From IMG/VR virus record IMGVR_UViG_3300029788_000157: a DNA stretch of 64,000 bases. One strand, written 5' to 3'. Source of the DNA: a virus. Under the pieces are notes generated by a model. That model was not told the origin of the DNA. It saw nothing but the letters and a program-made list of their open reading frames with translations, and searched no databases. Shown here piece by piece: positions 5,298 through 56,230 of the stretch. The first letter of the stretch is position 1, and each line of letters opens with the position of its first letter. The translations under genes were made by a program, and so were the position numbers.

Positions 5298-5723
5298 TTA
5301 TTTTAAATAAAAATTTGCTACGTGTTCTACCAATTCTCGCATTGAATCACATATACGTGTACTACATTCTACCAACCAAGGATGTAATTTATTACCGTCC
5401 TTATTTAATGCAATAACAGGTATATGATATTCTTTAGCTATCATCAATTCCATAGCAGTACCAATACTTTTAGGGTTATTAAAATTAACCACCACTAAAT
5501 CTGCTTTTCTAAGCCATGCCAATTCAAATTCCATAGCTTCTCTTTCAGATTTATGTTCTGTTGTTGTTGGAGAATAATATTCTGGTGGGCTAAAAAATAT
5601 TGGCTTTTTGATAATATCATAATCACCATATAATAATGCATTTTTAACTTGATTTCTCCATTTTAACTGTTCTTCTAATGTATAGCCAGACATTCCACCA
5701 GCCATATAAATACGCACATCCAT
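5298..5723 (-). CDS. nucleoside 2-deoxyribosyltransferase-like (Rossmann) protein
   Basis: 141 aa starting MDVRIYMAGGMSG; spacing of conserved E/D residues is typical of the PF05014-like fold; ATGA-type overlap with nadM. Confidence 0.5.
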   Translation of the reverse strand: MDVRIYMAGGMSGYTLEEQLKWRNQVKNALLYGDYDIIKKPIFFSPPEYYSPTTTEHKSEREAMEFELAWLRKADLVVVNFNNPKSIGTAMELMIAKEYHIPVIALNKDGNKLHPWLVECSTRICDSMRELVEHVANFYLK

Positions 5724-6319
5724 TACATATCACCTCTCATTTGTTGATAAAATGGTACTGTCATAAGCTCTGCACGAATTTCATCATACATTTTATGAAG
5801 TCTAGGATTTACCCAACGCATCCATTCTTTACGATTATCCTTAACCATATATTCTCTAATCTGAGTAGCGGAAATTGGGATTCTTCCTCTATTAACAATT
5901 AACTGAGACATATCTATAATGTCCTCTGCTGCAAACCATCTGGTTCTTTCTTCATCATTTCCAGAAATCATTAATTCTGGAACTTTATAAATATATCTAT
6001 CAGCATTTCCGAGAAGATATTTACCCCAATCTGGTGTAATATCATTTTCATTTGTCAAATCTGCTAATCCATATATCATAATATTTGAATTGTCACCATA
6101 GATTTCTTTGAGCATTTTGGTTCTAGTATTGATATTCAAAGGATTTCGTTCTGTGCCACATTCTTGAGCAGAACCAATCAAAATCAATACTCTATCACAA
6201 AGTTCTAATCCTGTTTTAACCAATGATTCATGTCCTTTGTGAAAAGTCTGAAATCTACCACAAATCATTCCAACATCATATGGTTTCATATTTCCTCCTT
6301 TAGACAACATATTATCCAA
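5723..6319 (-). CDS. nadM: nicotinamide/nicotinate mononucleotide adenylyltransferase (NadM type)
   Basis: ICGRFQTFHKGH matches the (H/T)xGH nucleotidyltransferase motif; NadM-like size; true start probably the internal MKPYDVG. Confidence 0.7.
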   Translation of the reverse strand: MDNMLSKGGNMKPYDVGMICGRFQTFHKGHESLVKTGLELCDRVLILIGSAQECGTERNPLNINTRTKMLKEIYGDNSNIMIYGLADLTNENDITPDWGKYLLGNADRYIYKVPELMISGNDEERTRWFAAEDIIDMSQLIVNRGRIPISATQIREYMVKDNRKEWMRWVNPRLHKMYDEIRAELMTVPFYQQMRGDM

Positions 6320-16920: not shown

Positions 16921-17073
16921 GCAAAACTGGAATTTAGACCGTAAAATTGCAACCTCACTTACAAGAATCGCTGAATTTTATGCTAAATATCCTCATGAAA
17001 TTTATGTTTTAAGTGTTGTTAGATACAATATATAGTGTATTCATTTATATACTTATCTATATATTGTATTGCT

Positions 17074-17829: not shown

Positions 17830-18973
17830 CCTTTAGTTCCTCTCTTTCTTCATATTTTTTAGAATACCAAGTATTCCACTTGTCAATAACCTCTTGCTGC
17901 TCATCAGATACAGGGTCATTGAATTTTTGTCTTGCCTGAACAATCTTACCTTTTCTTACCTCAATGGTAACAAGTGATTTATCAGGTGAATCTTTATATC
18001 TCAGGAAAAGTATATGACAATTTCCTTCAATAACATTTTTGATATATGAAGCTACACAATTGTTCTGACTTACCGCTTCATCTTTTATGGCTTCTGTTGA
18101 TTCAGGATAAATAAAAGTATAATCTCCAAAAGTCTTTTCCATTCCTTTATTTATTCTTGCTTTAAATTTATCCTCCTCAAACTGTTGAGACAACCTTGAA
18201 TAATTTCTACTTGCAATCTTATGAGTTGTAAGAAAATGCCTTGGATATTTGTCAAACTTATTACTAATTTGTCTCATCATATTGGCATAGTCATAAACTT
18301 CTTCAACTGCAAAACCAGTATCTTCTATTGCTTCAAAAGTCTTTAGATAATCCAGATAATTGAATAATCCTTTAGCAGTATAACCATACTCATTCAACAA
18401 GGTATTTAATATACCTATTTCTTTCCAATTATATTGCCATCTATTCTCTCCATAATATTCTTTTACACTTTTTAATTTGGTAAGGATACGGTGTATATCT
18501 TTATCATCTAATGATATAAACTCCATTTGATACGGAAGATTATAAGCATTTGGATTTTCTTTATAGAATAAAACCAGTTCGTCACTCAATGTTATCTTAT
18601 GGTCTTTGCAGATTTTAATTAAACCTTTTGGTATTTCTTTGATTGTTCCTGAAAAGCTACCACATATATCTTCAAATCCAGCAGAAAAAATTTGCTCATA
18701 TCGTTGATAATATGGAATTTTTGAAAGAATTGTACCAATATTATATATTGGATAATCCCATTTTCTTTGCACAAATTCAAGGAATTTTGCATACTGCTTA
18801 TCCTCACAAGCTTCAATCAATTCATTCATTGAAATACCACTTAACTGTGAACATAAATTTTTTACTATTTTTCCTTTCTTTCCGATACAGGTTTTAGTAG
18901 CAAAATCATATTTTACAGTTTTACCATCCTGAAAATCGAATATGAGGAACTGCTTTTCTTTGTAAACTAACAT
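17819..18973 (-). CDS. hypothetical protein
   Basis: 384-aa ORF; a (GA)n tract lies immediately 5' of its start. Confidence 0.45.
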   Translation of the reverse strand: MLVYKEKQFLIFDFQDGKTVKYDFATKTCIGKKGKIVKNLCSQLSGISMNELIEACEDKQYAKFLEFVQRKWDYPIYNIGTILSKIPYYQRYEQIFSAGFEDICGSFSGTIKEIPKGLIKICKDHKITLSDELVLFYKENPNAYNLPYQMEFISLDDKDIHRILTKLKSVKEYYGENRWQYNWKEIGILNTLLNEYGYTAKGLFNYLDYLKTFEAIEDTGFAVEEVYDYANMMRQISNKFDKYPRHFLTTHKIASRNYSRLSQQFEEDKFKARINKGMEKTFGDYTFIYPESTEAIKDEAVSQNNCVASYIKNVIEGNCHILFLRYKDSPDKSLVTIEVRKGKIVQARQKFNDPVSDEQQEVIDKWNTWYSKKYEEREELKDAS

Positions 18974-18976
18974 AAG

Positions 18977-19029
<53 letters not shown>

Positions 19030-19065
19030 AGAATTTCATCAATCTAAAAATCATATTCTCACCTC

Positions 19066-19308
19066 CTAGAACATTGCTGCAATATCCACACCTGTTAATA
19101 CACAAAGGCAATAAATAATACTAAGCATTGAAATCACACTCAAATATACCCCAAATTTTGTCAGTGCTCTAGTCTTACTGAGTAAAATAATCAATGTGTA
19201 CATGAAAACTGCCAAAGAATAAAACAACAACCAACCAACTCTAATCTTCTGAAAAATTGTTAATAAAAACAATACAATATGCAATACTGCTATTCCAAAT
19301 CCCAACAT
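19066..19308 (-). CDS. small integral membrane protein
   Basis: 80 aa with three hydrophobic helices. Confidence 0.4.
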   Translation of the reverse strand: MLGFGIAVLHIVLFLLTIFQKIRVGWLLFYSLAVFMYTLIILLSKTRALTKFGVYLSVISMLSIIYCLCVLTGVDIAAMF

Positions 19309-19317
19309 AACTCCTCC

Positions 19318-19956
19318 TTATTCAGCTTTTAAATCTTCATATCTTTTGTATAAGTGATTCTCGGCATAATACAAATTGTAATCACATTGTTCAATATACC
19401 ACCAATCCTTTTTATGACCAGCTTTTAATTCGTCATGTAAATGAGAGGATGTATTATAGTTGGAATCTACCATTTGACGAAAACTAAGTTCATCAATTTC
19501 GTTGCTGTTTTTTACAAATTCAGCAATCTCCAAAATGTCTTGCATAGTCATATCATCTGTAACAACATAAACGACTCTAACAATTTCATTTTCCTGTCTG
19601 AAAATTTTTGATAATTGTTCTTTATTCCTTAAATGGTAAACAACCCTTCTGCACATTTTCATTGGAAAATTACTGTCAATATAACTGGTGTGCATTTCTA
19701 AAGGAATACCCATCTCTTCAAGAATATCAAACAACTTTTCATACCAATCTGTATGCTTTTCATATTCGTGCAATGGGTCACCACCACCAGATACAGATAC
19801 AATATTGCAGCTATTTCCAATTAACATTTGTTTCAGATTATTTAATCCTGTTATTGTCGTTTTAGGAACTTTGATATTATTGTTTTTTACAATGCAATAT
19901 GGACAACTATAGTGACATCCAAAATTTGTGATAATACTCAAATATTTTTCAATCAT
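19318..19956 (-). CDS. radical SAM protein (small QueE/NrdG-like)
   Basis: CHYSCPYC matches the CxxxCxxC motif; a GGGDP glycine-rich motif follows. Confidence 0.6.
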   Translation of the reverse strand: MIEKYLSIITNFGCHYSCPYCIVKNNNIKVPKTTITGLNNLKQMLIGNSCNIVSVSGGGDPLHEYEKHTDWYEKLFDILEEMGIPLEMHTSYIDSNFPMKMCRRVVYHLRNKEQLSKIFRQENEIVRVVYVVTDDMTMQDILEIAEFVKNSNEIDELSFRQMVDSNYNTSSHLHDELKAGHKKDWWYIEQCDYNLYYAENHLYKRYEDLKAE

Positions 19957-19970
19957 GTTACTCCTTTCAG

Positions 19971-19993
19971 CATATAACCTTAATTGTTATCAC
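19971..19993 (-). promoter_or_regulatory. motif A upstream of the radical SAM gene
   Basis: catataaccttaattgttatcac. Confidence 0.45.
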
Positions 19994-20651
19994 TTTCATC
20001 ATCATCTTCGACTTCTTCCATCTCCATAACAACATCACAATTGCCACATTTAATAGCAATATCTTTCTTTCCTTTTGCAATTTGCTTACATTCAGGACAA
20101 GTATATTTGAATAAAGTTTTCTTTCGCTTAATTTTAGGCTTAACAGTAATTCCAGCTCTAAAATATTCAAATGCATTTTCGTCTGGTTTAATGTTGGTCT
20201 GAATATATTCTTTTAACTCATCTGACAAAGAGGTATATCCCCAACCAACGCTCTTTCCCTTTTCTACAACAAGTCCTACCGCTTCTGCAAGGGTTTTGAA
20301 TTTTTTGTTGTGGACATTTCCGCTGCAATCTTTAATTTCATTTACTTTATTACAATAATGAACCATTTCATGTAACAAAGTTTCTACAATTTCTTCTGCT
20401 GAACGATTGCCAAACCAACGTGGGTCAATATTGATTTCATAATATGCTTCAGGTTCTTCTGTCGTACTCTCATTTGTTTCCAGAACTTTTTTATCTTTCC
20501 ATACTTTATCCACAGTAAAGTGTCCAAGCGTTATTCCCTTGGTTTTCTGGATAGTAATAACTGGTTCTGGAAGGTTTTCATCGAACTTATCTTTATTTAA
20601 AATATTGAAAATTCGATACAACTCATCTAATGCAATACCAATTACATTCAT
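19980..20651 (-). CDS. SprT-like zinc metalloprotease-domain protein with C-terminal zinc ribbon
   Basis: HEMVH zinc motif; C-terminal CPEC...CGNC. Confidence 0.6.
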   Translation of the reverse strand: MNVIGIALDELYRIFNILNKDKFDENLPEPVITIQKTKGITLGHFTVDKVWKDKKVLETNESTTEEPEAYYEINIDPRWFGNRSAEEIVETLLHEMVHYCNKVNEIKDCSGNVHNKKFKTLAEAVGLVVEKGKSVGWGYTSLSDELKEYIQTNIKPDENAFEYFRAGITVKPKIKRKKTLFKYTCPECKQIAKGKKDIAIKCGNCDVVMEMEEVEDDDESDNN

Positions 20652-20848
20652 TTATCAGTTTCCTCCGTTTCCTTTAATATCAAATCAGGTTCTCTATCTT
20701 TCAGACGAGTTATAATAGCTCTTACTCCTTCAAGATATAATGGATTAGCGTTTATTGAATTAGCTTCTGTCTCAAACTCAACCAATTCAGTAATCATATT
20801 TTCTTTATGAAAATATTCTCCTGATTTATTTACTTTTAAATCGTTCAA
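20648..20848 (-). CDS. hypothetical protein
   Basis: 66-aa ORF preceded by motif A and a sigma-A/operator promoter. Confidence 0.35.
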   Translation of the reverse strand: MNDLKVNKSGEYFHKENMITELVEFETEANSINANPLYLEGVRAIITRLKDREPDLILKETEETDK

Positions 20849-20869
20849 GGTATCCTCCTTTCGATATGA

Positions 20870-20890
20870 TGTATAACCTTAATTGTTACT
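20870..20890 (-). promoter_or_regulatory. motif A
   Basis: tgtataaccttaattgttact, downstream of a sigma-A/operator promoter. Confidence 0.45.
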
Positions 20891-20912
20891 ATACATAAGA
20901 TACCACACATCT

Positions 20913-20929
20913 ATGTTGTTGTCAAGTAG
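20913..20929 (-). promoter_or_regulatory. sigma-A-type promoter (TTGACA-N17-TATCTT on the minus strand) overlapping operator ATGTTGTTGTCAAGTAG
   Basis: Conserved operator/-35 block. Confidence 0.45.
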
Positions 20930-20943
20930 TTATTTGATATAAA

Positions 20944-21747
20944 TTACATAGATTTAAGGTTTTTTAGAATCCATGCTATAACATCTACCGTCCAACCATT
21001 TCCACACAATTCCACTCTTTTTGAAGCAGATTTTACACATTCAGTAAAGCCATCTGGTAGTGTCTGCAATCTTTCAGCTTCAATAGGGTGTATTTTTCTA
21101 AATGAATATTCACCAAGATAAATATTATTTTTGTCATTACCAGAAGAAGGCAGCGTATTCATCTTGATAGTATTATATCTGGCTCTATTTTGTTGTGAAT
21201 AATTTCCTTTTCCGCTTGTATCCCAACTAACAATAGTGTTATCCCTATTAAATCTAATTGTATCTTTGTATTTCTCAAAGCTTTTAATATCATGTTTGCA
21301 TGAATACTCAATATCTTTAATAACTTTATCAGAATGTGGATACTCTTTTGAAAATGGTATATTAGTCCAATACAACCTTTTTCGCATTTGAGCAGAAAAC
21401 TCCATTGAATTTATTTCAACAGGTTCAACCTGTAATCTTTTGGAAATTTCATTTTGAATATCTTTAGATATTGAAGAATTGTTTTCATATAAAAAATACT
21501 CGCAATGGCTTTCATTCAATGCCCTTACAAACTGCATAAACAACTTGAATCCCATGCCATCACAAGTAACCTCTCTATCTGCTCCTCCTCTTGCAATACT
21601 CCAGTATGTACATGGACTTCCACCAATCAGCAAATCAAATCCCTGATATTGCGTGAAATCTCCTTCAAATACATCTCCTAAATATTCATCAGATGGATAA
21701 TTATATTTCGCTACAGCATTGGCAGCTTCTTCTATTTCATACGACAC
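20944..21747 (-). CDS. dcm: DNA (cytosine-5)-methyltransferase (annotated from GTG; conserved motif I lies upstream, see findings)
   Basis: GGSPCTYWS is motif IV (PC box) and YFLYEN the ENV-like motif. The frame continues upstream to ~21876 and encodes VLSLFNGISCGRVALERAGI (motif I), but no in-frame ATG/GTG/TTG occurs there. Confidence 0.6.
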   Translation of the reverse strand: MSYEIEEAANAVAKYNYPSDEYLGDVFEGDFTQYQGFDLLIGGSPCTYWSIARGGADREVTCDGMGFKLFMQFVRALNESHCEYFLYENNSSISKDIQNEISKRLQVEPVEINSMEFSAQMRKRLYWTNIPFSKEYPHSDKVIKDIEYSCKHDIKSFEKYKDTIRFNRDNTIVSWDTSGKGNYSQQNRARYNTIKMNTLPSSGNDKNNIYLGEYSFRKIHPIEAERLQTLPDGFTECVKSASKRVELCGNGWTVDVIAWILKNLKSM

Positions 21748-21912: not shown

Positions 21913-22017
21913 ATTTTTATATTATTCTCAAACGAAAGGAGCTTATTTTATGCTTTTTGAACCTCATAAAAGAGTAATTTTATGTGTACTCAAAGTCCTT
22001 ATTTTAAAGCTTTAAAA

Positions 22018-22040
22018 GGTATAACCTTAATAGTTTGCAT
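22018..22040 (-). promoter_or_regulatory. motif A upstream of the structured leader of the C5-MTase
   Basis: ggtataaccttaatagtttgcat. Confidence 0.4.
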
Positions 22041-22548
22041 AGCAACTAAGTTTTTTTTGTACCTTTTTCTTTAATTGTCTTTCATATCGTTCTGACACAT
22101 TCATCAGAACTGCAATTTCTCTACCTTTCAGTCCTTTTAAAAGATAATGAACTAATGTTTGTTCCTGTTCGTTTAAAACACCAAGAAGATATTCGCAATG
22201 CATATTTCCTATCACATCATCAATGACAGATTTAGAGTCAGCAAATGTCTCAGCGAAACTTTCTTCTCCCTCACTATCTGTTGATGCATCGTAAGATAGT
22301 ATGTTTTCCTCTGGAATACTCCTTTTTAAACTAATAGCTCTCCAATAATCATTAATTACGTTCTGCATACAAGAATACGCATATGTTGAAAATGTATTCT
22401 CATTCTCTGAAGAATAAGAAGTTGCTGCATTACATAACCCTATCGCAAGTAATCCATAATAATCTTCAACTACTAAATTTCTCTTTTTTGCAAAATCATA
22501 AATAAGATTATGATTTTCCTCTGCTAATTTTTGCTCTTTTTCTGTCAT
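22027..22548 (-). CDS. sigma-70 family sigma factor
   Basis: Region-2-like YSCMQNVINDYWR and region-4 HTH REIAVLMNVSERYERQLKKK. Confidence 0.65.
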   Translation of the reverse strand: MTEKEQKLAEENHNLIYDFAKKRNLVVEDYYGLLAIGLCNAATSYSSENENTFSTYAYSCMQNVINDYWRAISLKRSIPEENILSYDASTDSEGEESFAETFADSKSVIDDVIGNMHCEYLLGVLNEQEQTLVHYLLKGLKGREIAVLMNVSERYERQLKKKVQKKLSCYANY

Positions 22549-22567
22549 TGATATTCTACCTTTCTTG

Positions 22568-22849
22568 CTATTTTATTGTGTACACCGCAACATTCCTTAA
22601 ACTGATTTCATCAAATCGCTTTCCGATAATAATAACTCTTCCATCGTCAACCAGTTCTGTCAGTCGAGGTGCTGTAGCTTGTCTTTCGTTGCTTCTTAAC
22701 AAGCCTTGATTATAAAGAATAACCGCTACTTCTCTTGCTGTCAGCCCATTTTCTTTATTATCATGTAAAGTTGACAGAATTAAATTATACAATCCATTTC
22801 TATCCAATTTTTCAAGACTTTCAAATCTTGTATCGGTTGTAATTGACAA
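22568..22849 (-). CDS. winged-helix DNA-binding protein
   Basis: 93 aa with an HTH-like segment LTAREVAVILYNQGLL. Confidence 0.4.
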   Translation of the reverse strand: MSITTDTRFESLEKLDRNGLYNLILSTLHDNKENGLTAREVAVILYNQGLLRSNERQATAPRLTELVDDGRVIIIGKRFDEISLRNVAVYTIK

Positions 22850-22861
22850 CTTTATACCTCC

Positions 22862-23620
22862 TTAAATTGCAACAGGTAAATCATTCGGTGTATAAACTGG
22901 CATTGGTTTTAGCTTGAAAATATTCTTCTTATGCATAGAGTCAATCTTATGTTTGATATTTTCATCTTCACATTCACCTGTTCTGATATATCTGTTAAGT
23001 ATTGCATATGAAAATCCCAAATTATCTTCATCTGTAAGTCCACACAAGCCATCAATCGGAACTTTTCTTGTCAACTCTTTAGGTAATCCAAGATACTCTC
23101 CAATAGCAATTACTTCATCTGTTGTAAGCAGAGATAATGGACTAAAATCACCAGCTCCATCACCGTAACGTGTAGCGTATCCAACCCAATCTTCACTAAG
23201 GTTACAAGTATTTGCCACTCTGCCATTTAAAGTCTGTGCAATAGCATATAATGTAACCATTCTAATTCTTGCTGGAAGATTAGTGCTTGTCTGCATACTC
23301 CAATGGTCACACAATTGAGGTTTGATTTCATGTTTCAATGATTTAATTGCCCCATGAATGTCCACCGTATAGTTTTCAATACCAAGATGTTCAACAAGTT
23401 TGTATGCCATATCAATATCTGACTGTTCACCATTTGGCATAAGAACACCAATCACTCTATCTTTTCCCAGAGCTGCTACACATAATGCAGCAACTACGCT
23501 TGAATCTTTACCACCTGAAATACCCACAACAGCATTACAACCATTTCCATTAAGTGAAAACCAGTCCTGAATCCATGCGATAATTTCTTTTGTTGTCTTT
23601 TCTACATTAAATTTATACAT
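22862..23620 (-). CDS. nadE: NH3-dependent NAD+ synthetase
   Basis: GISGGKDSSVVAALCV PP-loop; ~250 aa. Confidence 0.8.
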   Translation of the reverse strand: MYKFNVEKTTKEIIAWIQDWFSLNGNGCNAVVGISGGKDSSVVAALCVAALGKDRVIGVLMPNGEQSDIDMAYKLVEHLGIENYTVDIHGAIKSLKHEIKPQLCDHWSMQTSTNLPARIRMVTLYAIAQTLNGRVANTCNLSEDWVGYATRYGDGAGDFSPLSLLTTDEVIAIGEYLGLPKELTRKVPIDGLCGLTDEDNLGFSYAILNRYIRTGECEDENIKHKIDSMHKKNIFKLKPMPVYTPNDLPVAI

Positions 23621-23680
23621 TCTGTACTTTCCTTTCTATTCAATTTGAGGTGGACTTTCATCCACCTCACTAACAGTTGC

Positions 23681-24208
23681 TTAACCTAAATCATATCTCC
23701 AAATTTCTACATCTACAGAAGATTTACCAAACACATCCTGAATAATTTTATACACATCATTCCAATTTGCACCACCTCTATAGCTTCCAATTCGATATGG
23801 CATAGCAACTGTCGCTCCAATCTTTTCAGCTTTCTCACGAATATCCAAGAAAGCCATTTTCATTGCAGTTAAATCAGTCTGCTGCTCATCCATACCAAAA
23901 TTCTTCTGACCAAAAAGATTGACAATATACTGATACTTAGAATCATATGCTTCAACATTTTCATTCTTCATAGTATCAACCATTACCATAGCCCATGTAT
24001 CAACTGGAACATACTGAACTGTTCCAAGCATTTCAATTTTATTCTTATTACAATGCTTCACATATTTAACATATGCCTTTTCAACATGAGGGTATCTGTC
24101 GGCTACCTGTGCTGCTACACCGCTTCCCATGACACCTAAACAATTTGTCTGGTGTACGATAAAATTTGCATCTGAATCAAAAAGATTTCCATTGATGTTT
24201 TTAATCAT
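23681..24208 (-). CDS. macro domain (ADP-ribose binding/processing) protein
   Basis: Start MIKNINGNLFDSDANFIVHQTNCLGVMGSGVAAQ matches the macro-domain N-terminus; start placed at the internal Met to remove overlap with nadV. Confidence 0.5.
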   Translation of the reverse strand: MIKNINGNLFDSDANFIVHQTNCLGVMGSGVAAQVADRYPHVEKAYVKYVKHCNKNKIEMLGTVQYVPVDTWAMVMVDTMKNENVEAYDSKYQYIVNLFGQKNFGMDEQQTDLTAMKMAFLDIREKAEKIGATVAMPYRIGSYRGGANWNDVYKIIQDVFGKSSVDVEIWRYDLG

Positions 24209-24221
24209 TTTTATCCCTTTC

Positions 24222-25976
24222 TTAGAATCCTTTGCTTTCTGCATGGATGCTATTTCTGATTTCATTTAATGTCTGGTTACGAACAACCTTACCATTAAGG
24301 AATACAGTCTCAAGCATATTAATATCAGACTCTTTCACATCATCTGTTACAACCTGACCCTTTTGGATTCCATCAATATATTTGATTTCTCCATCTTTGT
24401 TACGATATACTCTGACCATACCCTTCTGAGATTTCTTAACACCATCACCTGTTTTCGGGTCTTTATAAACCAAAATAGGTTTACCATTGATTTCAGCATA
24501 TGTAGCTTTATAAGCCCAGCCCTGTGTATCTCTTGTGTTATACTGGAAACTGTAAGAACCAGCACCAAATACTACATTTTCAACTGCATAGCCAAGGTTA
24601 GTCATATGATTACAAATGCTTTCACATCTTTCAAGTGTAATAGCATCTCCGTACACCATTCCAATATGAGGGTCTAATACTTTATACCCCTTAGAGTTTA
24701 TAGTTCCACCGAAAATCTCCCAAAGAATATCCAGTGTTCCTCTCTCTTCAATAGTGGCATCACGATATGTGAATGTGTCGTTTTCACCATCATTAGACCA
24801 TGTAGCAATATATTTCTTATTTCCAATCTCAAGGTAAATTGGAACAAGCTGTCCAGACGTATCTGTTTCATTGCAATAAAGTGACTGCATCATTGGACTT
24901 CTGGTATAGTAAGATTCAAATGCTTCTTTACTTTCATGGGCTTTCCACATTGGGGCAATACCACAAATAATCTCTTCTGGGTCACCGCTGTCAGGTCTAA
25001 TATTGATTCTGCCTGTATGATTAAGAATTACATCCTTATTTTTTCTAACAATATTGTCAACAAAATTCCAGTAATCATAACTGTCTGCCACAAAGCTGAA
25101 AGGTTTATTTGGATAAAGCTCTTTACACATTCTTACAAAAAATGTTTCTTCATCTCCATCTACTGCATAATTGCTTGTAGTACAAGAATGTTCAACAGAT
25201 GCAGACCAGCTTCCAACATCCTCATTTTCAACATCAGCTCCATAGTAATCACAAAGATACTGAATTGAAGGGATTGTAGATGTTTTATCGAAGCTTGTTA
25301 AAAATGCAGCTCCGCTTGTAATAGCAGCATCAAGACTAGCCATACCTCTAAAAGAAAAATCGCCACAACCAACTCTCTTCCAATTCGGATTGTCAGATGT
25401 TAAAACAATATATTTTTCAATAATCTTTCTGTAAATATAAGCTCTTGTTGCTGTTGTTGTAGGTAACCATAAATTACAAGAAAATAATGTCTCAAGATAA
25501 TTTGTTACCCATGCAAAATCAGGATGTGTATTTTCGACTGTACAACAAGGTACTCTATATGGTACTTTTGTACCTTCTGGCAAAGCCTTAATCTCAATCG
25601 GGAGATAGCCAAGTTTATGAAGTGCTTCAATATGTTCTGTATGAGCATTTTCATCAAATGTATTATGGATATACAATTTATACTCATTAAGCACTTCGTC
25701 TAACGGTCTATCAAAGAAATATTCATTAAACTGTTTTACCAAATATTCCTTAATAAATCCCTGTAATCCAAACCAGATTACAAATTTGCTCTGAGGAAAG
25801 AATTTATTACTACGTGGTGTCCAAGTGGAATACATCATTGTCATTCCATCTGGGTACATAGCCCGATGTGCAATTTTATAAAAATCGCATAATAACATCA
25901 TATTCTTCATTTTACTTATCCTCCTTACAATGGCATCCACAACCGCAATCACACACGTTCTCAGCATAATCAACAT
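24222..25976 (-). CDS. nadV: nicotinamide phosphoribosyltransferase-family protein (NadV/NAMPT or Namat-like)
   Basis: LCDFYKIAH and GYLPIEIKALPEGTKVP...VENTHPDFAWVTNYLETL align with NAMPT signature segments. Likely start is the ATG at 25910, 1 nt after the prs stop. Confidence 0.7.
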   Translation of the reverse strand: MLIMLRTCVIAVVDAIVRRISKMKNMMLLCDFYKIAHRAMYPDGMTMMYSTWTPRSNKFFPQSKFVIWFGLQGFIKEYLVKQFNEYFFDRPLDEVLNEYKLYIHNTFDENAHTEHIEALHKLGYLPIEIKALPEGTKVPYRVPCCTVENTHPDFAWVTNYLETLFSCNLWLPTTTATRAYIYRKIIEKYIVLTSDNPNWKRVGCGDFSFRGMASLDAAITSGAAFLTSFDKTSTIPSIQYLCDYYGADVENEDVGSWSASVEHSCTTSNYAVDGDEETFFVRMCKELYPNKPFSFVADSYDYWNFVDNIVRKNKDVILNHTGRINIRPDSGDPEEIICGIAPMWKAHESKEAFESYYTRSPMMQSLYCNETDTSGQLVPIYLEIGNKKYIATWSNDGENDTFTYRDATIEERGTLDILWEIFGGTINSKGYKVLDPHIGMVYGDAITLERCESICNHMTNLGYAVENVVFGAGSYSFQYNTRDTQGWAYKATYAEINGKPILVYKDPKTGDGVKKSQKGMVRVYRNKDGEIKYIDGIQKGQVVTDDVKESDINMLETVFLNGKVVRNQTLNEIRNSIHAESKGF

Positions 25977-26847
25977 TCATAGCAAACACAGTTACATTTT
26001 CATCACTCTTAAAAGGATAAATGCTATCTGTTGTGAACACATGGTCAATCAGCTTTCTGTGCTGAGTTGTTCCAAAAATACTTTTCTTTTCATAGTCCAC
26101 TGTAAGAAGATTCATTTTATCGTCACCAAACTGACCATCATAAATACTCTTTTCACAATGAGAAACAAACAGATAAATGTTTCTTGCTCCCATCTCTTTC
26201 AATTTCTTTGCTGCATAATAGAAAGTTCCACCCTTACTACAAATATCATCACGAATAAGAATATCTCTTCCTTTAATATCTTCAGGTTTAATCCCCATAA
26301 CATCTAATCCAAGAATCCGACCTGTTTCCCATTCTCTCTTCTTAACACCAAATGCATACGGAATCTTAATCCCTTTGGAATATCTCTTCATAGCCCCCTC
26401 ATCAGGGAAAAACATAATCGGTGTAATACCATCGTGAATCAACATATCAAGCACGTTGCTCACAAAAATATTAGTATTGATTACATTGCAATTCTTGATA
26501 GTTGCTGCTACAACACTTGAATGTGGGTCAACTACAAATACTCTGTCAAAATTCAGAGAATTAATCATTTCTGCAAAATACTTCATAGCAAAAATATCAT
26601 TTGGCTCTTCGATTCTGTCCATTCTTGCGTTAGGTACATATGGAAGGAAAAGAGATACATTCATTCCATGTGCCTGATAGAATTTTGTTAAAAATGAAAC
26701 TGCTACAAACTCAGCATCATCCTCATAATTCCAAGTAATAACAACTGTTTCTCCCTGTAAGCTAACATCACCTTTTACATTTGCTGTTCCATCAGGAAAT
26801 CTCTTTACTTCAACTTCTTTTCCATTTACTCTAATCATAATCTTCAC
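25912..26847 (-). CDS. prs: ribose-phosphate pyrophosphokinase-family protein (Prs or ADPR-pyrophosphokinase Adps-like)
   Basis: Prs-like segments FLPYVPNARMDR, DRVFVVDPHS and a PRPP-binding loop; unusual Cys-rich C-terminus CDCGCGCHC. Confidence 0.7.
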   Translation of the reverse strand: MKIMIRVNGKEVEVKRFPDGTANVKGDVSLQGETVVITWNYEDDAEFVAVSFLTKFYQAHGMNVSLFLPYVPNARMDRIEEPNDIFAMKYFAEMINSLNFDRVFVVDPHSSVVAATIKNCNVINTNIFVSNVLDMLIHDGITPIMFFPDEGAMKRYSKGIKIPYAFGVKKREWETGRILGLDVMGIKPEDIKGRDILIRDDICSKGGTFYYAAKKLKEMGARNIYLFVSHCEKSIYDGQFGDDKMNLLTVDYEKKSIFGTTQHRKLIDHVFTTDSIYPFKSDENVTVFAMNVDYAENVCDCGCGCHCKEDK

Positions 26848-26860
26848 CTTTCTTTTTTGA

Positions 26861-26880
26861 TATATAACCTTAACAGATAT
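26861..26880 (-). promoter_or_regulatory. motif A upstream of the prs-like gene
   Basis: tatataaccttaacagatat. Confidence 0.4.
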
Positions 26881-26889
26881 GACTGTTAT

Positions 26890-27525
26890 TTAGTTTTCAT
26901 TTGCCTGTGTGGATTCATCTGTATCTGCCTTTGCTTCCGTTGTTTCTGTAGATTCTGAATTTTCTCCATAATGTCTACCAATTACATCAACCTGACAGCT
27001 TGCCATTGTTCTAAGAGCTGCATTATGAGCTTTAATACTTGTACCAGCACAACAATGACTATCAACTTTAATTACTGTATTTGGCATAGCAGTTCTTAAA
27101 CCAATGGCATTTGCTACAACACAAATATCTGTGCATACTCCACAAAGTTCGATTTCATCACTACTACTGCACACCTGAGAAAGAATTGCAATCAAATCTT
27201 TGCTTGCAAATGTATTTTTATCAACTACACCTACATACTTTTTCTGTTTGCGAAGCATCTGAACAGCTTCCCAAACATCCTTGTTGATACTTTCTCCACC
27301 AGATTTTTTAATACAATGTGGTACAGGAAGTTTCTTGCCTTCAAGAGTATCCAGATAATTGTCATAATGAATATCTCTTGTCAGATAAATAGAATCATAA
27401 TCCTTTCCGTATTTCTTCAGCTTTTTTACAAGCTTTGGCACAATGGCTTTTGTCTCGTCATTTCCTAACGCACCATCAATAAAGTCATTCTGCACATCCA
27501 CTACAACCAAAATCTTTTTGTTCAT
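26890..27525 (-). CDS. pncA: isochorismatase-family hydrolase, nicotinamidase-like
   Basis: VVVDVQNDF and GVCTDICV (catalytic Cys) motifs; 211 aa. Confidence 0.55.
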   Translation of the reverse strand: MNKKILVVVDVQNDFIDGALGNDETKAIVPKLVKKLKKYGKDYDSIYLTRDIHYDNYLDTLEGKKLPVPHCIKKSGGESINKDVWEAVQMLRKQKKYVGVVDKNTFASKDLIAILSQVCSSSDEIELCGVCTDICVVANAIGLRTAMPNTVIKVDSHCCAGTSIKAHNAALRTMASCQVDVIGRHYGENSESTETTEAKADTDESTQANEN

Positions 27526-27576
27526 AGTTTTAACTCCTTTACATTCATATTATCGTTGATTATGATTAACCAACAG

Positions 27577-27660
27577 TGCTGGTGATGGGATTCGAACCCA
27601 CACGTTGTTTCCAACAATAGATTTTGAGTCTACCTTGTCTGCCAGTTCCAACACACCAGC
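27577..27660 (-). tRNA. tRNA-Leu (anticodon CAA), long variable arm
   Basis: Hand-folded: acceptor GCTGGTG/CACCAGC, anticodon loop CTCAAAA, T-loop TTCGAAT. Confidence 0.6.
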
Positions 27661-27664
27661 TTAG

Positions 27665-27737
27665 TGTGCCATATGGGATTTGAACCCATGACCCTTTGAT
27701 TAAAAGTCAAATGCTCTACCAACTGAGCTAATGGCAC
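27665..27737 (-). tRNA. tRNA-Lys (anticodon TTT)
   Basis: Hand-folded: acceptor GTGCCAT/ATGGCAC, D-arm GCTCAGTTGGTAGAGC, anticodon loop CTTTTAA. Confidence 0.6.
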
Positions 27738-28027
27738 ATATCCATAATGACCTTTCATAACATTATGGCGATTTGAGCGATTTCCATTTCTGTTTCATAA
27801 GAATTTTCAGATATTCTCTTATCTTACTTTTTTACTTGAATTATATATCATTTCAAATTCTAAGCTATCTTATAACGGTACTGTGTCTGGGGCTACTCCA
27901 GAGCTGCTAATTTAATAGCTGTCTAATTATCAGTGACACTCCTTTAGTTTTACGTTTCATTCGGGCTTTTGCTCCAATTCTTAATAATGCACACCATATA
28001 GGCGAAACGACAGGTTTTGATATTTAA

Positions 28028-28099
28028 CTGGGGTAATCGGATTCGAACCGATGTATGCAGCAGTCAAAGTGCTGTGCCTTACCGCTTGGCGATACCCCA
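28028..28099 (-). tRNA. tRNA-Gln (anticodon TTG)
   Basis: Hand-folded: acceptor TGGGGTA/TACCCCA, anticodon loop CTTTGAC. Confidence 0.6.
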
Positions 28100-28396
28100 A
28101 TGGGTAGATACAGTTTAACCTATAATTAGTAGCTAATCTAATTATGTTCTCCTACTGTCTAAAGGATGCACATTTTCATTTTAACCCACGCATTGTCTGC
28201 ATTTACAACACTTGAACACTGACGCAGTTCCTTACGCTATCTTCAATATAGCTGTTTATGTTTCTCCAGTGGCGAACTGGCAATGGTTAGCCAACCCATA
28301 TATAATGAAAATAGTCTAAGCGTTAGATAGATTGCTCTATCCGCTGGAATCGTACCAGCCCATCAACTATTGTTGAATCGAACCTCGCTTATTTCG

Positions 28397-28418: not shown

Positions 28419-28547
28419 TGTTAAAAGAAATTTTGTTTTCTATCTCTTAACTTGTGTTTAGTATAGCATATTCGTTTCTACTTGTCAACAACTTTTTTAA
28501 AGTTTTTATCACTTATTTATGTTGTTGTAAAATAGTTACCGTTCCTG

Positions 28548-29849
28548 TTATTTTACAAAATTAACTGATTTCGCTATGTTCTTTGCTGCATTAAAATCCG
28601 CATTTTCTTCATGACCACATTTAAGACATCTAAAATAAGATTGACCCTTTTCATTTTTGGGTCTATTCTTTTCATCCACATATCCACAACAACTACAGGT
28701 CTGAGAAGTATAATGTGGGTCTATTTTTCTAACCTCAATGCCATACTTATTTGCTTTGTATGTAATAAAAGACTGTAATTGATAATACGACCATCCTTTT
28801 AAAAATTTATTTACATTTTTACCTTTTGTAATTCCAGACAAATCTTCTATGTTAATATATTTAGCTTTGTTTTTTAAAGCAAAATCAATTACTTGTTTAC
28901 TAATATAATGATTATATGATTGAACCCAATTTCTTTCATAATCAGTAAACTTATCCATTGTTTTTAATTTTCTTTTTCTGCCATGACCACCTTTAGTCAT
29001 TTTAAGATTTGTCTGTAATCTACTCTTTTGATGTTGAATTTTTGTTTTTACTCGCATAAAATCATTTACACTACCAATATATTTTCGTGAATAATCATTT
29101 ATATTTAATCCACAAACCGCTGGTATTGCAATACCAACATCCACTCCAACTACCACATTTTCATCTAATTCCCTCTTTTCTTTTGGAATATCCATAGAAA
29201 GATTTAAAATAATTTTTCTTCCATCAATTTCTATAGAACTACTACAAACCTTATAATATTCTTCGAAAATCATTTGTATTTCGTGTCTAAGTGAAGCAGA
29301 TTTTTTCACATTTCCCAAAATTAATTTAAACGTAATATTATTAGCAAATTTAATAAACACTTCCAAATCTTTGTTATCTAAATGTTCCAAAAATTCTGCA
29401 TGATTTTTATAATTATGATATAAACCAGAATCACGATGCGGATTGTTGCTTCTTAAACGAACATAATCAACATGAATCAAAAGCGGATTATCACTTCTAT
29501 ATGTAGGTAAAGAGACTTTTCCATACATTAACCCATTTTTACAAGATTGTTTAAAATCCTGTTTTACTTTCATAGATAAACTTGAAGCAACTGGCAAACC
29601 TTTTGGAAATACAATATCTTGTGAATACGCAGAACCTTTTTTACTATTTGAAATTCTGCCATATAACTGATTCAATTCTTTTCTATCTTCTTTACTAGCT
29701 TTATTTAATTCTGCTAAATATAACGCAGACATATATTCATTCATAGCTTTATTTTGAGAAATCATACCTTCTCTTATATAATTAAAAACTCTATTTACTT
29801 CATCATTATTACCAACTATTAATAATTGAATTTTTCTTGTTAAAATCAT
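28548..29849 (-). CDS. tnpB: TnpB (IS605 OrfB) RNA-guided endonuclease-like protein
   Basis: RuvC-I VGVDVGIAIPAV; C-terminal HYTSQTCSCCG...FRCLKCGHEENADFNAAKNIA zinc finger plus RuvC-III. Confidence 0.85.
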   Translation of the reverse strand: MILTRKIQLLIVGNNDEVNRVFNYIREGMISQNKAMNEYMSALYLAELNKASKEDRKELNQLYGRISNSKKGSAYSQDIVFPKGLPVASSLSMKVKQDFKQSCKNGLMYGKVSLPTYRSDNPLLIHVDYVRLRSNNPHRDSGLYHNYKNHAEFLEHLDNKDLEVFIKFANNITFKLILGNVKKSASLRHEIQMIFEEYYKVCSSSIEIDGRKIILNLSMDIPKEKRELDENVVVGVDVGIAIPAVCGLNINDYSRKYIGSVNDFMRVKTKIQHQKSRLQTNLKMTKGGHGRKRKLKTMDKFTDYERNWVQSYNHYISKQVIDFALKNKAKYINIEDLSGITKGKNVNKFLKGWSYYQLQSFITYKANKYGIEVRKIDPHYTSQTCSCCGYVDEKNRPKNEKGQSYFRCLKCGHEENADFNAAKNIAKSVNFVK

Positions 29850-30237: not shown

Positions 30238-30873
30238 TTAAAGGGTGTTAATAGATACGTTGAAGCATAAAATATTAGTTTCTGCCACTTTTCTACACCA
30301 ATCATAGAACTGTTCATAGTCAAATTCACCTGTAGAATACTTTGTAACCCCTTTATATGGTGGGTCACAATAGATTAAAGCACCAGATAATGTATTCATA
30401 TCAATATCCAGATAATTTTTACTGGTCAATTTAACATCTTGAATAAGCGGAACTTGTTTCATAATATTCCTTATTGCTTCATTTGGAATATCTCTAGGGG
30501 TTACACCATCTGCTTTAAATCCTCTGGCATAACCACCAAAGTATTTTGAACCAAATGTACTACAGAATCCAACCAATCCAACATAATAATCAGGATAATT
30601 CTCTTTGTTTAATCTGACAGAATTATATTCATCTTCTGATATTGTTGATGGTGGTATCCAGCCTTCCTGAAGTTTTTTCAATAAAGCAATCAGTTCTTTA
30701 TGAATGTCATTACCCACACGAACCTTGCAATGAATTTTATCCATCATGTTCAATCCACCGCAGAATGGTTCGTAGTAGATACTGACATTATTATCATCAA
30801 TTAGTGATTGTAATATTGGTGCAATTTGTTTTGATACCTTATTTTTGCTTCCAACGTACTTAATAACAATCAC
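30238..30873 (-). CDS. dam: DNA N6-adenine methyltransferase (Dam/D12 class)
   Basis: N-terminal IKYVGSKNK (motif I-like) and LIYCDPPY (DPPY motif IV). Confidence 0.7.
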   Translation of the reverse strand: MIVIKYVGSKNKVSKQIAPILQSLIDDNNVSIYYEPFCGGLNMMDKIHCKVRVGNDIHKELIALLKKLQEGWIPPSTISEDEYNSVRLNKENYPDYYVGLVGFCSTFGSKYFGGYARGFKADGVTPRDIPNEAIRNIMKQVPLIQDVKLTSKNYLDIDMNTLSGALIYCDPPYKGVTKYSTGEFDYEQFYDWCRKVAETNILCFNVSINTL

Positions 30874-31195: not shown

Positions 31196-32803
31196 TTAAA
31201 ACATTTTATCTTCATCAATGTCTGTATCAACATTGGTGTCGGTGCTTTTATCTGTAGAGATACCTACATTCACACTTGGTACAGATGGTGTACTTAATTT
31301 TCCACCAAGAAAACCACCCAGTAATGCAGTAATATCAATACCTGTAGACTCTTTGATTCCATCTGTAACCTGACTCATAGTTGTCATGATGTTACCAGCT
31401 AACTGTGAAGAATCTCCACCGAACATTTTGATAGAATCAACATTTGTATAACCCTTACCAACAGCTTCGGCAATCTTCGGTAACTGTTCAAAATAAACCT
31501 TGATAGTATCAAGTTCCATCTGCTGTCTAGCTGCCTCACCATATTCTTTCATGGCTTCTGCCTTTTTCTGAATACCAGCAGCTTCTGCTTCTGCTTTAGC
31601 TCTTGTGGCTTCCGCTTCTGCCTGTCCTTTTGCTGCAATAGCTTCTGCTTCTGCTTTACCAGCAGCTTTTACTGCTTCTGCTTCCTGTTCCTTAGAGAAT
31701 CTTTCTGCTTCTGCCTTTGCTTTGCGTGACTCGGCTTCTTTCTCTGCTTCAAACTTGTCTGCTTCTGCTCTTTTCTGTCTTTCAAAAAGCTCTGCTTCTG
31801 CTTCTTTCTGTCTCTCATACTGTTCTGCATCGGCTTTCTGTTGTGCTGCATATTTATCTGCTTCTGCTTTCTTTTTAATAGATGCTTCCAGAGTCTTTTC
31901 CTGAATAGCAACCTCACGTTCCTTCAACTCAAGCTCTTTTTCCTGTTTTGCAAGATTGGCATTAGCAGTTGTAATTTCTACAGTCTTTCTCTGTTCCTCT
32001 TCCTGAATAGTGTAAGCTGCATCTGCTTCTGCCTTTTTAATATCAGACTCTTTCTTTAATTCAGCTTTCTTAATATCCAGTTCATTCTGTTTAATAGCAA
32101 TTTCGGATTCAGACTGTACTCTTGCATCATTCGCTTCCTTAGAAGCTTTTGCCTTTGCGATTTCTACCTCTTTATCAGCATTTGCTTTTGCAATAGCAGC
32201 ATCCTTTTTAATCTGAGAAATGTTATCAATTCCTAAATCATTGATAACGTGATTTTCGTCAGAGAAACGTTGTACATTAAACGATACCAATTCTAACCCC
32301 ATCTTTTTAAGGTCTGGAATAACATTTTCAGACACTTTCTCAACAAAAGTTTTTCTATCGCCAATCAGCTCACGAAGCTTCATTGTACAGATAATCTCTC
32401 GAATATTTCCTTCAAGAACTTCTGTAACAATATCTCCAATTTCCTCTGTAGATTTATTAAGGAAGTTCTGTGCTGCAATCTCAACCATCTCAGATGTAGA
32501 ACCAACCTTAACATTGACAGCAGAATCAACATAAATGTTGATACAATCCGCAGTAGGTACTGCATCTCCTGTTTTAATATCCAGCGGAATAAGCTTGAGA
32601 GAAAGCTTATCCATTCTCTCAAAGAAAGGAACTTTAATACCAGCTTTTCCGATAAGTACCTTTGGCTTTTTTCTAAGTCCTGAAATAATCAATGCTGTAT
32701 CAGGAGATGCTTTAACATATCCAGATGCCAGTACACCTACTCCACCAACACCAACAACAAAAGGTAACGCAACTGTAATTCCATTCATAACTTCATTTAA
32801 CAT
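31196..32803 (-). CDS. SPFH/band-7 (flotillin-like) membrane protein with long coiled coil
   Basis: N-terminal TM helix, SPFH core, then ~250 aa A/E/K-rich coiled coil. Confidence 0.6.
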   Translation of the reverse strand: MLNEVMNGITVALPFVVGVGGVGVLASGYVKASPDTALIISGLRKKPKVLIGKAGIKVPFFERMDKLSLKLIPLDIKTGDAVPTADCINIYVDSAVNVKVGSTSEMVEIAAQNFLNKSTEEIGDIVTEVLEGNIREIICTMKLRELIGDRKTFVEKVSENVIPDLKKMGLELVSFNVQRFSDENHVINDLGIDNISQIKKDAAIAKANADKEVEIAKAKASKEANDARVQSESEIAIKQNELDIKKAELKKESDIKKAEADAAYTIQEEEQRKTVEITTANANLAKQEKELELKEREVAIQEKTLEASIKKKAEADKYAAQQKADAEQYERQKEAEAELFERQKRAEADKFEAEKEAESRKAKAEAERFSKEQEAEAVKAAGKAEAEAIAAKGQAEAEATRAKAEAEAAGIQKKAEAMKEYGEAARQQMELDTIKVYFEQLPKIAEAVGKGYTNVDSIKMFGGDSSQLAGNIMTTMSQVTDGIKESTGIDITALLGGFLGGKLSTPSVPSVNVGISTDKSTDTNVDTDIDEDKMF

Positions 32804-56147: not shown

Positions 56148-56152
56148 CTTAT

Positions 56153-56224: not shown

Positions 56225-56230
56225 TTTTAT

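Follow-up and report, generated by a model that had tools for sequence, protein, structure and literature searches.

The 64,000-nt viral sequence of IMG/VR record IMGVR_UViG_3300029788_000157 (hereafter the window, meaning the whole stretch of DNA analyzed) carries at positions 22862..27525 a set of five tightly coupled genes, all leftward, which encode a nicotinamidase (PncA), an Adps-type protein, a Namat-type transferase, a macro-domain protein and an NAD+ synthetase (NadE). An earlier note on this DNA had named the five open reading frames (ORFs) and their families, and profile searches recovered all of them as named; the motifs quoted there (VVVDVQNDF, CTDICV and CDCGCGCHC) were all found in the proteins. 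Across viral and bacterial genomes, an altered pyridine-base pocket of Namat was found to go strictly together with PncA and NadE. In our reading, to which we give a probability of roughly one half, the cluster would be an extended variant of the NAD+ reconstitution system NARP1 that runs through nicotinate instead of nicotinamide.

Few antiviral strategies are as common among bacteria as NAD+ depletion, and of the phage responses known, NARP1 is the most frequent. In NARP1, described from phages SPbetaL1, Bas63, FADO and ICP1, Adps uses ADP-ribose (ADPR) together with ATP to form ADPR pyrophosphate (ADPR-PP), and Namat makes NAD+ from ADPR-PP and nicotinamide. In the extension NARP1-AP (January 2026 preprint), the operon of 15% of NARP1 phages also encodes Adpp, a Poa1p-like macro protein that yields ADPR by removing the phosphate from ADPR-1''-phosphate, which RES-type NADases produce.

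In the route proposed here, a host NADase would cut NAD+ into ADPR and nicotinamide, PncA would turn nicotinamide into nicotinate and NH3, and the Adps-type protein would form ADPR-PP and AMP from ADPR and ATP. The variant Namat, with its adenine clamp kept and the amide-reading Asp lost, would then join nicotinate and ADPR-PP into nicotinic acid adenine dinucleotide (NaAD), releasing pyrophosphate, and NadE would complete NAD+ from NaAD, ATP and NH3. The NH3 released by PncA would fit as the co-substrate of an NH3-dependent NadE. The macro-domain protein would serve as a feeder, returning ADPR-1''-phosphate (as Adpp does) or another ADP-ribosyl adduct to free ADPR, while a distant nicotinamide mononucleotide (NMN) adenylyltransferase (NMNAT) may form an optional side branch. 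We thus infer nicotinate specificity of the transferase, NaAD as its product, NaAD specificity of NadE and an anti-defence role of the module in this phage. A nicotinate route would explain (i) the loss of the amide-reading Asp, (ii) the presence of PncA and NadE, and never of PncB or NadD, beside the Adps-Namat pair, and (iii) the placing of pncA in the transferase operon of a bacterial chromosome.

The nicotinamide pocket of SPbetaL1 Namat is formed by Phe189, Arg192, Asp215, Ala242, Arg306, Asp13' and Tyr15'; Asp215 hydrogen-bonds nicotinamide, and its replacement by Ala lowers nicotinamide-dependent NAD+ synthesis 8.1-fold (PMC12774641). In the Namat-type protein of the window (24222..25910, minus strand; 562 aa from ATG 25910, maximal ORF to 25976), the pocket loop FDKTSTIPS (25266..25292, minus strand) carries Lys209 in place of Gly213 and Ser211 in place of Asp215 (SPbetaL1 numbering), and Ser238, within SASVEHS (codon 25197..25199, minus strand), stands for Ala242. 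The remaining pocket and catalytic residues are all unchanged, and the catalytic core (Asp13, Tyr15, Phe189, Arg192, the catalytic His, Arg306, Asp308, Arg399 and Asp400) is kept by the window protein and every full-length variant sequence. Position 242 is Ser in 32/32 distinct variant-clade sequences and Ala in 43/43 canonical ones, and position 213 in the variant clade is occupied by Lys, Asn or Arg in place of Gly. As the NARP2-type outgroups show the Gly-Thr-Asp plus Ala state, the altered pocket is derived. Reviews call the equivalent residue of human NAMPT, Asp219, fundamental to substrate specificity and list D219S as switching substrate affinity (PMC4919578, PMC7096376).

The distribution of the pocket residues was compared with gene content in 81 viral loci, comprising 80 retrieved with the window protein as query and one GenBank faecal-phage contig. 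Asp or Glu at position 215 together with Ala at 242 was found in 44 loci, and neither PncA nor NadE lay within 8 kb in any of these (0/44). In the other 37 loci, position 215 is Ser or Ala and position 242 is Ser, and both PncA and NadE are adjacent in 33 of them; the four exceptions are contigs that end before the expected gene. The variant sublineages differ in gene order and share 36-62% identity, which indicates that they are not a recent clone. When the ORFs of 12 representative neighbourhoods were clustered, the recurring families were NadE and Namat (12/12 each), PncA (11), Adps (11) and macro (7), with no PncB-like or NadD-like family among these recurring clusters. The complete 136-kb genome of the gut phage Phass-1 encodes a nicotinamidase, Adps, Namat and NadE in the same order as the window, and its Namat combines Ala215, Ser242 and Arg213 with a canonical clamp. 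The earlier note had assigned PncA and NadE to a deamidated route of their own, parallel to the rest; the replacement of the nicotinamide residues of Namat and the strict co-occurrence point instead to an integral part of the module.

The module is not confined to viral contigs. One genome per prokaryotic species was scanned with an alignment of the variant sequences, a set that cannot test the canonical class, and 79 of the 80 loci recovered have the variant pocket; nearly all belong to gut or rumen Clostridia, cultured isolates included. Among the 46 variant loci with complete flanks, 45 contain PncA and Adps; of these, 44 have PncA-Adps-Namat in this order on a single strand and 36 contain NadE as well. 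A prophage-like region holds the module in Lachnospiraceae bacterium A4, with a NADAR domain where the window has the macro-domain protein. Ruminococcus albus 8 carries a chromosomal three-gene pncA-adps-namat operon (L130:6609-9509) with no NadE nearby, flanked by ordinary chromosomal genes for an acetate kinase, an MFS transporter and a GH2 glycosidase; this cultured rumen bacterium is a tractable organism for the pathway outside phages. Bacteria generally encode a housekeeping NAD synthetase elsewhere in the genome, so the nicotinate route would also explain why chromosomal versions can do without a NadE of their own, while phage versions usually carry one.

These data bear directly on the possibility that the cluster is an ordinary NARP1-AP with a nicotinamide-using Namat, to which PncA and NadE were added to boost host Preiss-Handler salvage (through host PncB and NadD) in parallel. 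We consider this unlikely, though it has real points in its favor: Adps, the Namat clamp and the macro-domain protein all fit NARP1/NARP1-AP, phages are known to carry assorted NAD-salvage genes such as the pncB-nadD-nadE clusters of gut jumbo phages, and Ser at the position of human Asp219 may leave some nicotinamide activity. However, it gives no account of why Asp and Ala are replaced exactly where PncA and NadE occur (0/44 against 33/37), and the residue found naturally in much of the variant clade, Ala215, is the one that costs SPbetaL1 Namat about eight-fold of its nicotinamide activity. PncB and NadD never accompany the module. Furthermore, a co-operonic nicotinamidase would compete with a nicotinamide-using Namat for its substrate and starve it, so that the R. 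albus operon counts for the nicotinate route.

The window transferase was compared with Namat and Nampt references. The protein scored 486 bits on NF006629 (cutoff 405), 503 bits to chains 9w5x/9w5w compared to ∼208 to human NAMPT, and by BLAST 456 bits to SPbetaL1 Namat compared to at most 121 to NARP2-type Nampts; chain 9w5x matches SPbetaL1 Namat with 100% identity in the stretch compared. Namat differs from Nampt in an adenine selectivity clamp, consisting of a helix (SCH) with the motif GS-X-phi-X-phi-X-phi-TRD, where X is aromatic, and a residue of a loop (SCL), for which the rule is Arg, or Lys/Tyr followed by a stacking residue (PMC12774641). In the window protein the SCH, GSYSFQYNTRD (24528..24560, minus strand; aa 451-461), is an exact fit to the Namat motif with aromatics at positions 3 and 7, and the SCL, TPRSNKFF (25797..25820, minus strand), has Lys then Phe as in Bas63; NARP2-type Nampts show GGGLLQ..RD at the SCH position. 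The protein thus appears Namat-like on the ADPR-PP side, and it should not be filed as a nicotinamide-specific Namat. It also carries an insertion of ∼69 aa (aa 319-387; 24750..24956, minus strand) that appears as an alignment gap relative to SPbetaL1 Namat after the IRPDSGDP strand and gave no match in a Pfam search. The insertion seems specific to this phage lineage: near-identical Namats were found only in loci L003-L005, where its presence was deduced from ORF length, and the insertions of other homologues (9-40 aa) sit elsewhere, within the SCH clamp.

The partner protein is encoded immediately upstream (25912..26838, minus strand; 308 aa from ATG 26838, maximal ORF to 26847), with Namat as the next gene after a 1-nt gap; in the Adps clade, a Namat homologue lies no more than 10 genes away in 97% of cases. 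Adps is distinguished from phosphoribosyl pyrophosphate (PRPP) synthetase (Prs) by a remodelled ATP-donor site (the PP loop, the Phe221/Phe223 lid, ICP1 Cys215-Ser220, hydrophobic residues at 194/195/197 and the catalytic Lys185) and by the loss of C-terminal helices (the PRPS alpha11-alpha12 module). The assignment was made from bit scores and motifs of the window protein against the SPbetaL1, ICP1 and E. coli references. Identity was 38% to the validated SPbetaL1 Adps (149-160 bits), 36% to ICP1 Adps (100 bits) and 26.5% to E. coli Prs (72 bits), and the general Prs model TIGR01251 gave 97 bits, under its cutoff of 113. The catalytic Lys (SPbetaL1 K162, ICP1 K185) aligns within VKKRE; it is invariant in 138 aligned Adps homologues (106 associated with variant and 32 with canonical Namats), and Ile194 is invariant with it in the 106. 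The donor site, DDICSKGGTFYY, supplies Cys215, Phe221, Tyr223, Ile194, Leu195 and Leu197 (ICP1 numbering), and the PP loop DDICSKGGTF resembles SPbetaL1 DDLSSFGGTF; E. coli Prs has Leu221 and Lys223.

Each of the 106 variant-associated homologues was closer to SPbetaL1 Adps than to E. coli Prs, with median scores of 157 and 60 bits. The C-terminus of the window protein contains an insertion of ∼25 aa, an SPbetaL1-like KLIDHVFTTDS segment and a Cys-rich tail, and its alignment to the E. coli C-terminus is weak. Bit scores, motifs and clamp place the pair in the Adps/Namat (NARP1) kind rather than with Prs/NadV. The tail CDCGCGCHC (25927..25953, minus strand), which had been pointed out as atypical, is real, but it is confined to this phage lineage (3/144 Adps homologues: the window and the near-identical L003 and L004), is encoded by a short TGT/GGT-rich run, and is followed by KEDK, whose codons form the Shine-Dalgarno sequence of Namat; tail and ribosome-binding site of the downstream gene overlap. 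A conserved metal site of the family was rejected as an interpretation because so few homologues have the tail; a metal-binding or regulatory role in this lineage is possible.

PncA (26890..27525, minus strand; 211 aa; Pfam Isochorismatase 4e-17) has nicotinamidases as its closest solved relatives, namely that of P. horikoshii (1im5, 3e-10) and M. tuberculosis PncA. Aligned to the P. horikoshii enzyme, it has both the triad (Asp10/Lys103/Cys136) and the metal site (Asp51-His53...His70), with matching motifs VVVDVQNDF, VVDKNTF, CTDICV and TRDIHYDNY...PHC. The macro-domain protein (23681..24208, minus strand) is 175 aa long from ATG 24208, 13 nt past the Namat stop codon (maximal ORF to 24265). 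It matched Pfam Macro PF01661 (1.5e-5; 25.4 bits against a cutoff of 22) and the NCBIfam DarG macro region (7e-16), and its best structural matches (DarG macro 5m3i, 8e-9; Poa1p 6lft, 8e-7) place it in the Poa1p/DarG/TARG1 branch. It shares 39% identity with FADO gp33 and 24% with the macro protein of the NARP1 operon of Chazly21 (Vibrio phage, Thalassavirus); a macro gene beside NARP1 was sought in phage FADO and is not adjacent there. The suggestion that this protein could process ADP-ribose adducts agrees with published NARP1-AP as regards the presence of a macro gene in a NARP1 operon, and the activity itself is predicted from sequence.

A macro gene was present in 32 of the 80 viral loci. 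In Lachnospiraceae A4 the macro slot between Namat and NadE is filled by the NADAR domain (L125:9450-9878, 2e-28), which suggests an interchangeable "ADPR-releasing" position in the module. In locus L059 (9930-10469 and 10901-11395) one small ORF separates the macro gene from that of a Tpt1/KptA RNA 2'-phosphotransferase (2.6e-48). This enzyme uses up NAD+, and its reaction leads to the classical substrate of Poa1p, ADPR-1''-phosphate. Clearing by-products of phage RNA repair may thus be a further role of the macro proteins, and the macro, NADAR and Tpt1 neighbours together point to an ADPR-centred theme.

The same observations bear on the possibility that the module is a PRPP-based Preiss-Handler pathway, in which a genuine Prs and a PncB-analogue transferase make nicotinic acid mononucleotide (NaMN), host NadD or the phage NMNAT converts it to NaAD, NadE completes NAD+, and ADPR has no role. 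Nicotinate use would explain the pocket change and the linkage to PncA and NadE equally well under this scheme, and pncA-prs-pncB-like would make a sensible bacterial salvage operon. Moreover, SPbetaL1 Namat retains PRPP activity in vitro, the SCH clamp is disrupted in many variant members, and the NMNAT of the window is of the archaeal NadM type, a family able to use NaMN. Nevertheless, we regard it as improbable. The Adps-type PP loop and lid accompany the closer similarity to SPbetaL1 Adps in 106/106 of the Prs-like proteins, and the published assay detected no Prs-type product of SPbetaL1 Adps. The adenine clamp, which according to published mutagenesis is needed for ADPR-PP only, is intact in the window, Phass-1, L095, L098 and L100, and ADPR-releasing enzymes (macro, NADAR) as well as Tpt1 sit in the module.

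NadE (22862..23620, minus strand; 252 aa) is an NH3-dependent NAD+ synthetase (Pfam NAD_synthase 2e-52; TIGR00552 176 bits, cutoff 64); it has a single synthetase domain, an SGGKDS P-loop and no glutaminase domain. Its two top structural matches are nearly tied: P. horikoshii NadE, an archaeal short form (119 bits), and chain 3fiu (113 bits), which we take to be the Francisella NMN synthetase, an enzyme amidating NaMN. The characterized archaeal NadE, that of M. jannaschii, is a strict NaAD synthetase.

The NadM/archaeal-type NMN(NaMN) adenylyltransferase of the window is encoded at 5723..6319 (minus strand; NF002243 4e-16; HxGH and ISATQIR motifs; no Nudix domain). Its stop codon overlaps at 5723, in an ATGA-type translational coupling, the start of a nucleoside 2-deoxyribosyltransferase-like/DUF4406-like protein (5298..5723, minus strand; PF15891 30.3 bits against a cutoff of 30, PF05014 27.8 against 28.8), so the second gene pair reported at 5298..6319 was borne out. 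No homologue of the latter protein was found in any related locus. NMNAT directly follows NadE in 4/80 viral loci (L059, L075, L076 and L078); it was absent from the 8-kb flanks of 31/35 NadE-carrying viral loci, present in 1/79 variant bacterial-genome loci, and is an accessory gene outside the conserved core. Since archaeal-type NadM enzymes adenylylate NaMN as well as NMN, the enzyme could pass the product of a transferase side reaction with PRPP on to the NaAD-to-NadE step.

A Francisella-type route, with NadE amidating NaMN to NMN and the NadM-type NMNAT finishing NAD+, would account for the match to 3fiu, the NMNAT in the window and after NadE in the four loci, and the known pairing of such NadE homologues with NadM (PMC3376133), but it is very improbable given that NMNAT is missing from most NadE-carrying loci, that tblastn detected no NMNAT (and no macro homologue) in the whole Phass-1 genome, and that NadE matches the archaeal short form best among solved structures.

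The earlier note had also suggested that the window could encode NARP2, the KVP40-clade PRPP-preferring Nampt plus Nmnat, in addition to NARP1. This did not stand: there is a single NAMPT-family gene, it has the Namat clamp and not GGGLLQ, and NMNAT alone does not constitute NARP2. The Adps/Namat pair (24222-26838) and the NMNAT (5723-6319) do lie together in one genome; among about 20,000 genomes, the NARP authors reported no phage that combined NARP1 with NARP2.

To assess how independent the covariation of pocket and gene content is, trees of the Namat sequences were examined. In a midpoint-rooted neighbour-joining tree all variant sequences fell in one deep clade, while the base of a bootstrapped tree with NARP2-type outgroups was poorly resolved. 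With the pocket columns removed, the window lineage and two large gut sublineages grouped in 233/300 bootstraps, and Phass-1 joined them in 38/300. The pocket switch thus appears to have occurred once, possibly twice. The treatment of the covariation as many independent events (Fisher p 2e-8) was dropped because of these trees. Divergence within the variant group is ∼0.8-0.9 substitutions per site, compared to 0.79 for the whole canonical Namat family. With one or two origins, the weight of the argument lies in long, exception-free retention and in pathway logic.

Several points weigh against the nicotinate route. The covariation represents one or at most two ancient events, not many, and the Fisher value, calculated on 90% clusters, overstates independence. 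The predicted specificity is drawn from three residues and gene context. Reviews report human D219S as no more than a switch of substrate affinity. Most variant members have SCH-clamp insertions (e.g. GSFSMQC...PFTRD), so that ADPR-PP use can be assigned to them with less certainty than to the window protein. Chain 3fiu, presumably the NaMN-amidating Francisella enzyme, is the runner-up among the structural matches of NadE, which makes NaAD specificity a less secure prediction. Finally, the deamidated route costs more ATP, with no evident advantage; hosts that rapidly deamidate nicotinamide, or the pull of an irreversible NadE step, are possible reasons why the costlier route is favored. As regards human D219S, the direction of the switch in the work of Khan et al. 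(2006) was reportedly toward nicotinic acid.

A broader proposal, for which we see somewhat less than an even chance, is that the module represents an unrecognized four-enzyme deamido pathway, in which a nicotinate ADP-ribose transferase would bypass both PncB and NadD. It may be native to gut and rumen Clostridia, with phages having captured it repeatedly and added NadE and feeders (macro, NADAR) against NAD+-depleting defences. If the nicotinate reading is true, it adds a new reaction, nicotinate + ADPR-PP to NaAD, that links ADP-ribose recycling to deamidated NAD synthesis. The database entries "PRPP synthetase" and "nicotinate/nicotinamide phosphoribosyltransferase" beside pncA/nadE in many gut Clostridia and their phages would then belong to one pathway, and a three-residue rule (213, 215 and 242) would separate nicotinamide-type from nicotinate-type Namat. 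The pathway may also matter to the gut nicotinamide/nicotinate balance.

The window is of phage origin, as judged from a large terminase, a portal protein, primase/helicase and a tRNA array. Two IMG/VR contigs (94 kb and 130 kb) share 99% identity with it across the locus, and a megablast of positions 22000-28000 against GenBank phages returned just a 57-nt match, i.e. no close cultured relative. The likelier gene starts within the cluster were read from ribosome-binding sites at the junctions on the coding strand. The Namat ATG at 25910 lies one base past the Adps stop codon, giving a protein of 562 aa and not 584, and the last Adps codons contain the Shine-Dalgarno sequence AAGGAGG. Contrary to the statement that the last four genes abut or overlap, the macro and NadE genes are separated by a 60-nt spacer. 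Within this spacer lies a hairpin with an 8-bp stem, GAGGTGGA-TGAAAG-TCCACCTC (23647..23668, minus strand), with no T-run behind it and no call there in a terminator scan. A 93-aa ORF downstream of NadE gave no match in Pfam.

Three tRNA genes (Gln-ttg, Lys-ttt and Leu-caa; 27576..28100, minus strand) lie directly upstream of PncA on the same strand, and the NAD module of Phass-1 likewise directly follows a tRNA array. Upstream of these tRNAs and the cluster is a promoter-like site, TTGACA-17-TATACT with TG (28460..28488, minus strand), which is the best of the region with 11/12 consensus matches, although the count of promoter-like sites was not above the shuffled expectation; it is a possible start of the transcription unit of the cluster. 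A search for an NAD+ riboswitch or other regulatory RNA family near the cluster found none.

A TnpB/Cas12f-like ORF (28548-29849, minus strand; 433 aa; Cas12f1-like TNB domain, 1.6e-25) is located directly upstream of the promoter-like site, tRNAs and NAD cluster. The Lachnospiraceae A4 prophage has a different TnpB (OrfB_IS605; L125:13233-14570) at ∼3 kb from its NAD module. The cluster is surrounded by genes of DNA-modification type (16000-21747 and 30238-30873, minus strand), encoding a PAPS-reductase-like protein, a weak radical-SAM match, an SprT-like protein, a C5 cytosine methylase and a Dam-type N6-adenine methylase, and a sigma-70 region-2 protein is encoded at 22027-22548. Further features of the minus strand are (i) an SPFH/Band-7 protein with a flotillin domain (31196-32803; 535 aa), homologues of which lie near the NAD module in L032 and L035, (ii) a pentapeptide-repeat protein with a C-terminal DUF5758 (33647-34867; 406 aa), which may be a DNA mimic and an anti-defence candidate, (iii) a full-length Pistol self-cleaving ribozyme (48455-48522; Rfam RF02679; 62.6 bits, gathering score 34.5) in the early/accessory gene region, and (iv) a PNK-metallophosphatase-RNA ligase fusion (7061-9304; 747 aa; phrog_8238, 1e-225), a tRNA/RNA repair protein that implies anticodon-nuclease pressure. 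An array of 15 tRNAs (55954-57462, plus strand) precedes the terminase/portal block and contains no suppressor tRNA, unlike that of the recoded Phass-1.

On present evidence, the Adps-Namat-macro part of the cluster is already known, while the fixed linkage to PncA and NadE and the re-tuned base pocket, wide in Clostridia, are new. In the literature on NARP1/Namat in combination with NadE, nicotinamidase, nicotinate, NaAD or ADPR-PP, neither this arrangement nor a nicotinate-using Namat was described, although coverage was incomplete and an earlier description is possible. The papers on RyDEP, aRES, the Namat and Adps structures and ICP1 make no mention of NadE, nicotinamidase or nicotinate use; the survey of Iyer 2022 and the Phass-1 paper do not describe the module; and the gut jumbo-phage paper lists pncB-nadD-nadE clusters and not PncA-Adps-Namat-NadE. 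Among other add-ons, RyDEP converts cyclic ADPR into ADPR, and NARP3 was rejected as a precedent covering NadE and PncA because it consists of PnuC and NadR.

With NARP2 the window shares an NMN adenylyltransferase, and Namat-type enzymes can use PRPP as a side reaction; it differs in having no KVP40-clade Nampt, and its NMNAT lacks a Nudix domain and lies 17 kb away. The Preiss-Handler pathway (PncA, PncB, NadD, NadE) has the same two enzymes at its ends and nicotinate as the intermediate predicted here, but PncB and NadD occur in no neighbourhood, and Adps plus the variant Namat are proposed as a single-step replacement from ADPR-PP. Human NAMPT D219S (Khan et al. 2006, cited in the reviews PMC4919578 and PMC7096376) parallels the variant in position, in the Asp-to-Ser change, in enzyme family and in a reported affinity switch; it is engineered and PRPP-using, whereas the variant arose in nature, became fixed in a deep clade and also has Ala242Ser and Gly213Lys/Asn/Arg. 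The Paenibacillus foliorum pair pfAdps/pfNamat (PMC12774641) is likewise a chromosomal Adps-Namat pair. Its pfNamat is 72% identical to SPbetaL1 Namat, makes NAD+ from ADPR and nicotinamide and is thus canonical by behaviour (PMC12774641), while the Clostridia operons differ in their variant pocket and co-operonic pncA.

NARP1-AP (Adps, Adpp, Namat; Vibrio phage Gary) is defined by a PF01661, PF14519 or PF20016 macro domain within two genes of NARP1, and the window has such a protein, of the Poa1p/DarG branch, inside the operon and within that distance. In the window, however, the macro gene follows Namat rather than lying between Adps and Namat, its product is only 24% identical to the Chazly21 macro protein, with its activity predicted from sequence, and loci related to the window have NADAR or nothing in this slot. 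NARP1 itself and the window both have an adjacent, coupled Adps-Namat pair with Adps first, the catalytic Lys, an SPbetaL1-type PP loop, the Namat core, the SCH and the SCL. The window differs from NARP1 in the 69-aa Namat insertion and Cys-rich Adps tail, in the pocket residues Ser, Ser and Lys for Asp215, Ala242 and Gly213, in the attached PncA and NadE, and in the predicted product, which would be NaAD and not NAD+.

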